From positions 3,596,001-3,660,000 of the forward strand of contig OX597840.1 of the NCBI GenBank assembly GCA_951406725.2: a stretch of 64,000 bases of DNA, given 5' to 3'. This document shows positions 35,364 through 59,140 of this stretch, piece by piece. The notes beneath the pieces were generated by a model, which was not told where the DNA came from, did no database searches, and worked only from the letters and a program-made list of their open reading frames with translations. The DNA is from Octopus vulgaris (taxonomy: Eukaryota). Both the position numbers and the translations under genes were made by a program. Positions within the stretch are counted from its first letter, which is position 1; each line of letters begins with the position of its first letter.

Positions 35364-35924
35364 ATATTAATTTAATAATACCGTCAATTTAACACCAAGT
35401 GGCTTAGCACAAAAAACTACGGAGAAAATACAAATTTATACATAAATTATTAGAGAGTTATCCACTATGTGGATAACTCTAGTGCTAAAAATAGCTCCGA
35501 AGCAACCACAGAAAAACCGTTTCCAACTAGAATCAACACACATTCAACTGAAGGAAAGTGAAATACAACGAATAAAATAGATTGACTCTATACAATTGTT
35601 TCATTACTAATGCAATATGTAGTTTTACTTACATTTGCATCCATAAATCTTCGGTAGAGTTTGTCAGAAATGCAATTAATTAGATCGATTCGGGCGTCAA
35701 AAACACGAGCGGTCCAACCAGTTACATTTTTAGTTATGTCTCAAATTCCGCGCCAAAAGCATGCCTAGACTCCATTGAAAACGTATGCCGCATCAAATAA
35801 AATATTGACTGCCGCGTAGTTAAATTTATAAAATTATAAATGAGGGTGAAAAATCGATATTAATTTAATAATACCGTCAATTTAACACCAAGTGGCTTAG
35901 CACAAAAAACTACGGAGAAAATAC
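35364..35924 (-). mobile_element. 493-bp unit with 68-bp terminal direct repeat and a hammerhead (retrozyme/Penelope pLTR-like)
   Basis: 35364-35431 is identical to 35857-35924; flanked by (TA)n; no ORF; internal hammerhead fold and a perfect 12-bp hairpin at 35454-35480. Confidence 0.75.
35585..35660 (-). ncRNA. Minimal type I hammerhead ribozyme (CCGAAGA core variant)
   Basis: ACUCUA-CCGAAGA-[long stem II with AUGCAA/UUGCAU and AUGUA/UACAU]-GAAAC-AAUU-GUA^UAGAGU; palindromic stem III region ACAAUUGU. Confidence 0.72.
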
Positions 35925-36032
35925 TATAATTTTATATATATATATATATACATATATATAGAAAGAATATTGATACTGATTAGAGATAATAATGGTAGTG
36001 ACCGCAAGCTAAAAAACCGTATAGGCAAAATT

Positions 36033-57730: not shown

Positions 57731-57760
<30 letters not shown>

Positions 57761-57763
<3 letters not shown>

Positions 57764-58110
57764 AGTGGCTGTGTGGTAAGTAGCTTGCTTACGAACCACA
57801 TGGTTCCGGGTTCCGTCCCACTGCGTGGTACCTTGGGCATGTGTCTTCTACTATAGCCTCGGGCCGACCAAATCCTTGTAAGTGGATTTGGTAGACGGAA
57901 ACTGAAAGAAGCCCGTCAAACATATGTATATATGTGTGTGTATGTTTGTGTGTTCTGTTTGTCCCCCCCCCAACCGATGCTGGTGTGTTTACGTCCCCGT
58001 AACTTACGGTTCGGCAAAAGAGACCTATAGAATAAGTACTAGGGTCGATTTTCTCGACTAAAGGCGGTGCTCCAGCATGGCCACAGTCAAATGACTGAAA
58101 CAAGTAAATG
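57761..58110 (+). mobile_element. SINE family B
   Basis: aggagtggctgtgtggtaag...gactgaaacaagtaaa. Confidence 0.9.
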
Positions 58111-58273
58111 AATAAATGAATGAAATGAATATATATGTAATGGAGAAATTGTACAAAATGTATAAATGGATGATAAGTAAAACACCGGCACAGTTTCGAT
58201 TACCTGTTTTTATCCGTAGATTTATTGCAGGATTTTGCTACTGGCGGTTGGGGTAACAATATTAATAAAATAG

Positions 58274-58344
58274 GAGACTTTATTGCGTAGAACACATGTT
58301 TCGACCCATTCAGGGTCTCTTCGGCTACATCAATAAAATGTCTC
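58274..58344 (-). ncRNA. Minimal type I hammerhead ribozyme (CCGAAGA core variant)
   Basis: GAGAC-A-UUUUAUUG-A-UGUAG-CCGAAGA-GACCC-UGAAU-GGGUC-GAAAC-AUGU-GUU^CUACG-CAAUAAA-GUCUC: extended stem I, 5-bp stem II, 2-bp stem III with palindromic ACAUGU. Confidence 0.78.
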
Positions 58345-58527
58345 ATTAGAAATTTCTTGAATCTGCTTACGTACCGCTATACGTCCATCAAATTCAAGAA
58401 TGTATGTATATATGTATGTATGTAAATGTGCACACATGGATTTGTGTGTTTACCATTAAATAAAGAAGCAGGCAACTCACTTGACATCACCAGATATTCA
58501 ACAAAATATTTTAAAGAATATTTCAAC

Positions 58528-59140
58528 AGGCGCAGGAGTGGCTGTGTGGTAAGTAGCTTGCTTACCAACCACATAGTTCCGGGTTCAGTCCCACTTCGTG
58601 GCACCTTGGGCAAGTGTCTTCTACTATAGCCTCGGGCCGACCAAAGCCTTGTCAGTGGATTTGGTAGACGGAAACTGAAAGAAGCCCGTCGTATATTTGT
58701 ATATATATGTATATGCGCATGTGAGTTTGTGTGTCTGTGTTTGTCCCATCCAACATCGCTTGACAACCGATACTGGTTCCGGGTTCAGTCCCACTGCGTG
58801 GCATCTTGGGCAAGTGTCTTCTACTATAGCCTCGGGCCGACCAAAGCCTTGTCAGTGGATTTGGTAGACGGAAACTGAAAAGAAGCCCGTCGAATATATT
58901 TGTATATATATGTATATGTGCGTGTGTGTTTGTGTGTCTGTGTTTGTCCCATCCAACATCGCTTGACAACCGATGCTGGTGTGTTTATGTCCCCGTCACT
59001 TAGCGGTTCGGCAAAAGACCGATATAATAAGTCCCGGGCTTACAAACAATAAGTCCCGGGGTCGATTTGCTCGACTAAAGGCGGTGCTCCAGCATAGCCG
59101 CAGTCGAATGACTGAAACAAGTAAAAGAGTAACAAGAGAG
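58528..59140 (+). mobile_element. SINE family B with ~200-bp internal tandem duplication
   Basis: 58575-58771 is repeated at about 58775-58973. Confidence 0.92.

Follow-up and report, generated by a model that had tools for sequence, protein, structure and literature searches.

Hammerhead motifs with C at core position 4 in the tail of a Penelope-like retrotransposon and in other repeats of Octopus vulgaris

The window (the whole 64,000-nt stretch of Octopus vulgaris DNA analysed here) carries a type I hammerhead motif in which core position 4, normally U, is C. Its host is a truncated Penelope-like retrotransposon (PLE), with the motif in the 3′ tail. From comparison with related copies, it is probable that C4 is carried by subfamilies that spread, as a tolerated and likely slower core whose cleavage would require two copies to be paired through stem III. 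The kind of element is already known; what we did not find described is that the C4 core is common in this genome.

The motif and its host element

The motif and the element around it are made up of the following features, in window coordinates.

58130-58137, no strand: short TA run at the 3′ end of the PLE, a likely remnant of the target (sequence)
58138-58402, minus strand: 3′ end of a 5′-truncated PLE with Hydra-clade motifs, stopping at the fixed 3′ terminus of the family (repeat comparison)
58274-58344, minus strand: type I hammerhead motif with a short self-complementary stem III (descriptor, Rfam, folding)
58274-58290, minus strand: 3′ arm of stem I, with a private 16-nt deletion after GUCU (comparison with copies)
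58291-58302, minus strand: G12-A13-A14, stem III ACAUGUGU (dimer register, two G-U pairs) and U17 (two-copy fold)
58303-58317, minus strand: stem-loop II, GACCC-UGAAU-GGGUC, with G10.1-C11.1 (sequence and fold)
58318-58324, minus strand: core C3-C4-G5-A6-A7-G8-A9, with C3 at 58324 and C4 at 58323
58325-58344, minus strand: 5′ arm of the bulged stem I, with a private G2.1 at 58325 whose partner C1.1 is private too (comparison with copies)
58403-58430, no strand: TA/TACA microsatellite at the truncated 5′ end of the PLE (sequence)

When letters and fold were read again, every motif element listed in the preliminary description was found in its place on the minus strand. Two of its details need amendment. 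Stem I had been given an outer helix GAGAC/GUCUC; the AGAC/GUCU part stands, but the terminal G-C pair is a product of the private 16-nt deletion. The stem I helices are therefore AGAC/GUCU with that terminal G-C (58344-58340 with 58278-58274), UUUAUUG/CAAUAAA and UGUAG/CUACG. For stem III, the letters AC-AUGU-GU are right, but the perfect ACAUGU palindrome is an off-register duplex and not the hammerhead register. The latter, chosen by the two-copy fold, is ACAUGUGU paired with itself over 8 bp, two of them G-U. Stems I and II fold (z = -2.89), and stem III is barely formed in the monomer, with a pair probability of 0.10. With two copies, stem III becomes an intermolecular 8-bp helix, and A14-U17 is also paired. 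U17 is at 58291, and the predicted cut is at 58291/58290 (minus strand).

With any base allowed at position 4, a hammerhead descriptor run on the window returned 58274-58344 alone under its two stricter settings and one further site under the loosest. The Rfam model Hammerhead_1 (RF00163) aligned in full on a 401-nt stretch with 24.5 bits (E = 9e-4), below its gathering score of 34; a whole-window Rfam scan gave no hammerhead among the 150 of 453 matches listed, which are microsatellite-driven miRNA matches. The motif has the type I features of RF00163 (a three-stem junction, C3-N-G5-A6-N-G8-A9, G12-A13-A14, A15.1-U16.1 and H17) and departs from the model at position 4, where it has C (58323) instead of U. 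The low Rfam score and the stem III missing from the monomer fold are what a chance match in AT-rich DNA might give. However, no CYGANGA match appeared in any of 100 block-shuffled windows, and the same motif occupies the same place, 3′ of a PLE reading frame, in more than 100 related copies, so that we consider a chance origin extremely improbable.

The motif had been placed in a non-SINE island of about 250 bp (58140-58400). The island is real; its identity as a PLE tail (58138-58402) had not been foreseen. Judged by its sequence motifs, the host is a PLE with Hydra-clade motifs. The window copy keeps just the terminal 265 bp of it. The tail repeat has 802 candidate places in the genome, and the best 40 of these 802, scored at 78-84% identity, share one 3′ end before (TA)n; several have inverted 5′ pieces. 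Insertion of the family into (TA)n is visible in the 3′ flanks. Walking upstream from tail copies, we crossed a microsatellite-rich region and reached a GIY-YIG endonuclease and a reverse transcriptase (RT); in 17 loci the GIY-YIG region and the hammerhead share a strand, the former 462-1256 bp upstream. Long copies, read by eye against published motifs, contain DKT, a CxCX5C linker, CxxC and CxH together with a C-terminal GIY-YIG; DKT in place of DKG was seen in one long copy (L135), and the longest copy begins downstream of where the N-terminal RWK motif would lie. Pfam gave no relevant match for three PLE protein pieces, and none at E up to 1 for a 639-residue open frame with RT and GIY-YIG (L072:317-2233, minus strand).

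All copies of the family that were examined are broken, and no second copy lies within the 64-kb window, where the direct-repeat search was dominated by microsatellites. The window copy is probably an old, lone and inert fossil, an ordinary decayed fragment. Two CCGA copies on C43, in the same orientation and 4.9 kb from each other, were rejected as flanking repeats of a full element, as they belong to a 98% identical 5-kb duplication. A GIY-YIG frame beside a copy on C5 was likewise rejected as a part of this family, since it does not match the long copies. Several other features accompany these elements. A SINE-like abundant repeat flanks the PLE tail on both sides in the window (57760-58110 and 58530-59000). 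A duplicated block on C5 that also holds copies of this PLE contains intronless reading frames (L067:8503-9381 and L068:1826-2338, both minus strand), which we take to be caspase-like from their QACRG motif. On C25, a 22-kb duplication includes a tandem repeat of 72-bp units, in which a frame with 24-residue repeats is open (L064 and L066).

Position 4 within the PLE family

The preliminary description had proposed that the change of U4 to C is a feature of a lineage or family and not random decay, and had named a count of CCGA against CUGA beforehand as a test. A census pattern with no constraint on positions 4-5 and 17-1.1 matched 64 times, tallied by hand: 25 CCGA, 2 CCAA, 2 CCUA, 34 CUGA and 1 CUAA, or C4 in 29/64. 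The count thus shows a U4 majority (35/64) in this family, yet C4 forms a subfamily of its own, and the proposal is borne out by this subfamily structure together with the census. Positions 4 and 17 vary together, C4 going mostly with a GUC triplet, with 23 C4/C17, 6 C4/U17, 1 U4/C17 and 34 U4/U17 matches (Fisher p = 7e-11, on rows that are partly non-independent, some being duplicated or inverted pieces of one insertion).

Splitting 116 distinct copies by 14 other positions placed 32 in subfamily B and 60 in subfamily A, with 23 intermediates and 1 unclassified. C4 occurs in 29/32 copies of B, 7/60 of A and 11/23 of the intermediates, frequencies that are partly circular, since positions 4 and 17 served as seeds for choosing the subfamily markers. 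In a tree of 74 of the 116 copies with positions 4, 5, 17 and 1.1 masked, C4 takes 10 changes, compared with a shuffle mean of 22.4, and 0/1000 shuffles were as low. Among 40 copies found by upstream queries, and so not chosen on the ribozyme, 25 are U4, 13 are C4 and 2 have another base. The endonuclease regions give a similar grouping: in a tree of 34 of them, rooted on one outgroup copy, with an unsettled bootstrap and two labels from overlapping loci, B is a nested clade (support 81/94) in which 8/9 ribozyme-linked rows are C4. The outgroup copy, set off by a 100/100 branch, reads CUGA and GUU. Since B nests as a clade and the outgroup copy reads in this way, U4 appears to be ancestral in the PLE family and C4 derived.

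Several other sources for the two states were considered. That all CUGA arose by CpG decay from one CCGA ancestor was rejected because such decay would yield TG and CA about equally, and the family has 34 TG and 2 CA. The subfamily counts and the masked tree led us to reject random T-to-C decay as an origin for all C4. A-to-I editing, which gives A-to-G on sense RNA, was dropped as a source of the U4-to-C change. Contigs from four sequencing runs proved to be PLE-family copies and not the window locus; U4 made up 58% and 49% of the summed depth in the two large runs, to which we attach low weight.

The search for stem covariation, which had also been called for in advance, was productive: 15 subfamily B copies share a change from G-C to U-A in outer stem I, a single inherited event. 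As read from these copies, the compensatory change is one event fixed after C4 in subfamily B. The G10.1-C11.1 pair is present in 90/115 copies, and the extra base between positions 9 and 10.1 is absent in this family. The motif at 58274-58344 has G2.1-C1.1 where the family form is C2.1-G1.1, and is alone in this (1/115; no other copy with the pair was found among the 115 compared). Because four more double changes in core stems also occur, each in single copies, the G2.1-C1.1 pair is, on this comparison, no strong evidence of selection. The ribozyme is intact in 11/40 copies and decays at a rate like that of its flanks, with a post-insertion divergence of 0.072 vs 0.067 and 0.073 in A, and of 0.086 vs 0.078 and 0.079 in B. 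None of 86 copies starts at the predicted cut.

How the window copy came by its C4 is a separate question. Compared over 262 nt with the subfamily majorities, it has 23 differences to A, which is mostly U4, and 32 to B, which is C4; it is about 9% decayed and carries the A background with U17. Its C4 might thus be a private T-to-C change that arose in an old member of the U4 subfamily, in which case the agreement with the motif at 35585 would be a coincidence, even though C4 subfamilies exist elsewhere. Closeness to the U4 subfamily, U17, a TpG-to-CpG background of 3.7% and a tree that sets the window copy among U4 copies, with no support value shown, all agree with a private change, which we nevertheless rate as possible but doubtful. 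C4 on the A background (7/60) is three times as frequent as that background rate (p = 0.007). Moreover, it is linked to an upstream variant that the window copy shares, found in 5/8 C4 copies on the A background (window copy included) vs 4/43 U4 copies (p = 0.002), and CA in two of the seven A-background C4 copies implies that CG stood there earlier. Descent from a minor C4 side-branch is therefore somewhat more likely than private mutation as the source of the C4 in the window copy.

Other hammerhead families with C4

It had further been proposed that several unrelated hammerhead families coexist in this genome. They do: beside the PLE tail there are a 493-bp repeat, an element of about 230 bp and further motif groups. 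The first of these also lies in the window.

35372-35925, minus strand: 493-bp tandem hammerhead repeat (retrozyme-like), one unit plus about 60 bp, with C4 at 35653 and a predicted cut at 35591/35590

The motif at 35585 is a member of this young repeat, whose copies are 96-100% identical on many contigs. The repeat is a tandem, non-coding as judged from tblastn searches with four PLE proteins; each unit contains a type I hammerhead and has a long stem II and a U10.1-U11.1 mismatch. A census with a pattern tied to the commonest variant gave 41/42 CCGA, 1 CCAA and 0 CUGA. Arrays, including L174-L203, have up to about six units and show 5′ inversions; their 5′ ends are scattered and they have two preferred 3′ ends, with 2 of the first 100 listed of 167 copies starting at the predicted cut. 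One lineage has a compensatory change from C-G to U-A in stem II. In two arrays every unit shares array-private variants, and another array is mixed; rolling-circle copying or local duplication would give such private variants. From its sequence features, the 493-bp repeat is a good candidate for an active retrozyme. A relative with 75% identity (L173:2500-3080, minus strand) has a CUGAGGA core and, by eye, 4/5 stem I pairs changed on both sides.

The third family (L204-L213) is a short element lying in (TA)n, about 230 bp long, that carries a minimal hammerhead. Exact matches of a 31-nt pattern number 9,258, of which 6,375 (69%) are CCGA, 2,539 CUGA and 344 other. CpG decay was rejected here too as the source of all CUGA, with at most 344 CA vs 2,539 TG. 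Ten copies read by eye include U4 and C4 with different flanks, and most begin near one 5′ point. Across 882 kb of retrieved loci we distinguished 13 motif groups; seven have C4 (four of them in 1-3 copies), and A4 and G4 are the basis of none of the 13. L010, L031, L050, L070, L133, L169 and L177 hold further hammerhead families, often as inverted pairs, whose stem II carries long inserts and whose stem III loops are palindromic.

Possible cleavage by C4 cores and relation to known hammerheads

We infer that C4 cores cut, because they have spread, because position 4 is held to pyrimidines and because stems have been repaired inside C4 lineages. By analogy with published PLE hammerheads, two motifs in the tandem transcripts of a source element would pair via the ACAUGUGU stem III. 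Paired in this way, they would cut after position 17, and the PLE reverse transcriptase would be supplied with unit RNAs or circles. In the dimer fold U17 is able to pair with A14, which is why the U17-to-C change of the C4 subfamily may make up for the slower core. A GUC triplet cuts better than GUU. More tentatively, U4C could be a recurrent and fully working core in this animal lineage, with independent origins in several PLE and retrozyme families and a majority in the largest family counted, buffered for example by U17C and serving as a slow-cutting setting for dimer-gated processing. If that were true, surveys limited to CUGA would have missed a large share of animal hammerheads.

C4 cores might, conversely, be nearly dead, the elements spreading without cleavage and the structure being kept for dimerisation, for binding of RT or protein, or by inertia. 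U4C is slow in vitro (PMC3088659), and Naiad PLEs reportedly spread although they lack canonical hammerheads, the authors suggesting that hammerheads may parasitise PLEs (PMC8557442). Neither the PLE nor the 493-bp family has a clear footprint at the cut, and in one 493-bp array the units differ by as many as about ten changes, consistent with a linear multimer as template. On the other side, unrelated families fix only U or C at position 4 and keep the rest of the core, and compensatory stem changes arose within C4 lineages. Two arrays have private variants in every unit, as from one circle, which local duplication also explains. We regard nearly dead cores as unlikely and return to the tolerated, slower core as our preferred reading. 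The closest natural precedent is a viroid hammerhead with U4C, a change reported to lower in vitro activity considerably and to leave enough in vivo (Ambros and Flores 1998, as cited in PMC3088659). The core change is the same, but it is rare there and is the majority state here in families of tens to thousands of copies. Unlike the viroid hammerhead as described in that source, the octopus C4 motifs have an unstable stem III. Even with U4, PLE hammerheads are reported to have weak activity (PMC4209133).

The core base U4 is regarded as nearly invariant, and the PLE surveys PMC4209133 and PMC8557442 were built on CUGANGA. Cervera and De la Pena 2014 (PMC4209133) fixed "cuganga" in their descriptor, and Craig et al. 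2021 (PMC8557442) used the Cervera descriptor and relaxed versions of it. The representative motifs in the PDF text of Figure S3 of PMC4209133 include no CCGA, the variant listed being U3-A8, and the Hydra hammerheads given in File S2 of Craig et al. (PMC8557442) all begin ctga. Variant C4 motifs would escape the published PLE search patterns, and the thousands of C4 motifs in amplifying families suggest that animal hammerhead counts are too low. A 2026 deep-sea RNA virome survey (PMC13481778) did use CYGANGA and reported C/T degeneracy at Y; its hammerheads are on viral contigs, whereas the C4 motifs here are in animal retroelements. No report of C4 cores in animal retroelements was found in the literature searched, whose scope excluded figures, most subscription papers, preprint supplements and Lunse et al., any of which may show such cores. 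The natural matched pairs (U4/C4 and U17/C17 on the same stems) and the young all-C4 tandem offer a handle on whether PLEs and retrozymes need cleavage.

In other respects the octopus elements resemble described ones. The PLE hammerheads of PMC4209133 share the type I topology, G10.1-C11.1, a short self-complementary helix III and location in the PLE tail; they too are mostly single truncated copies or inverted pairs with predicted dimer action. The octopus family differs from them in having no base added between positions 9 and 10.1, as do some of the published examples. The element at 35585 is like animal non-LTR retrozymes (PMC7229834; 10.64898/2026.07.22.740005) in being a non-coding tandem whose units each hold one type I hammerhead and in having 5′ inversions like those of PLEs, and is set apart by its 493-bp unit, long stem II, C4 and U10.1-U11.1 mismatch. 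Unlike the retrozymes of PMC7229834, the motif at 58300 belongs to a coding PLE family and is not tandem. With the Hydra-clade PLEs of PMC8557442 this family shares the C-terminal GIY-YIG, DKT, the CxCX5C linker, CxxC, CxH and (TA)n targets, as well as a 3′ hammerhead whose self-complementary stem III is 4 bp long. Hydra-1_Obim, the only octopus family included there, has a different hammerhead sequence, and the present family is further distinguished from the Hydra-clade PLEs of that source by a long, microsatellite-rich 3′ region and a span of more than 3 kb.
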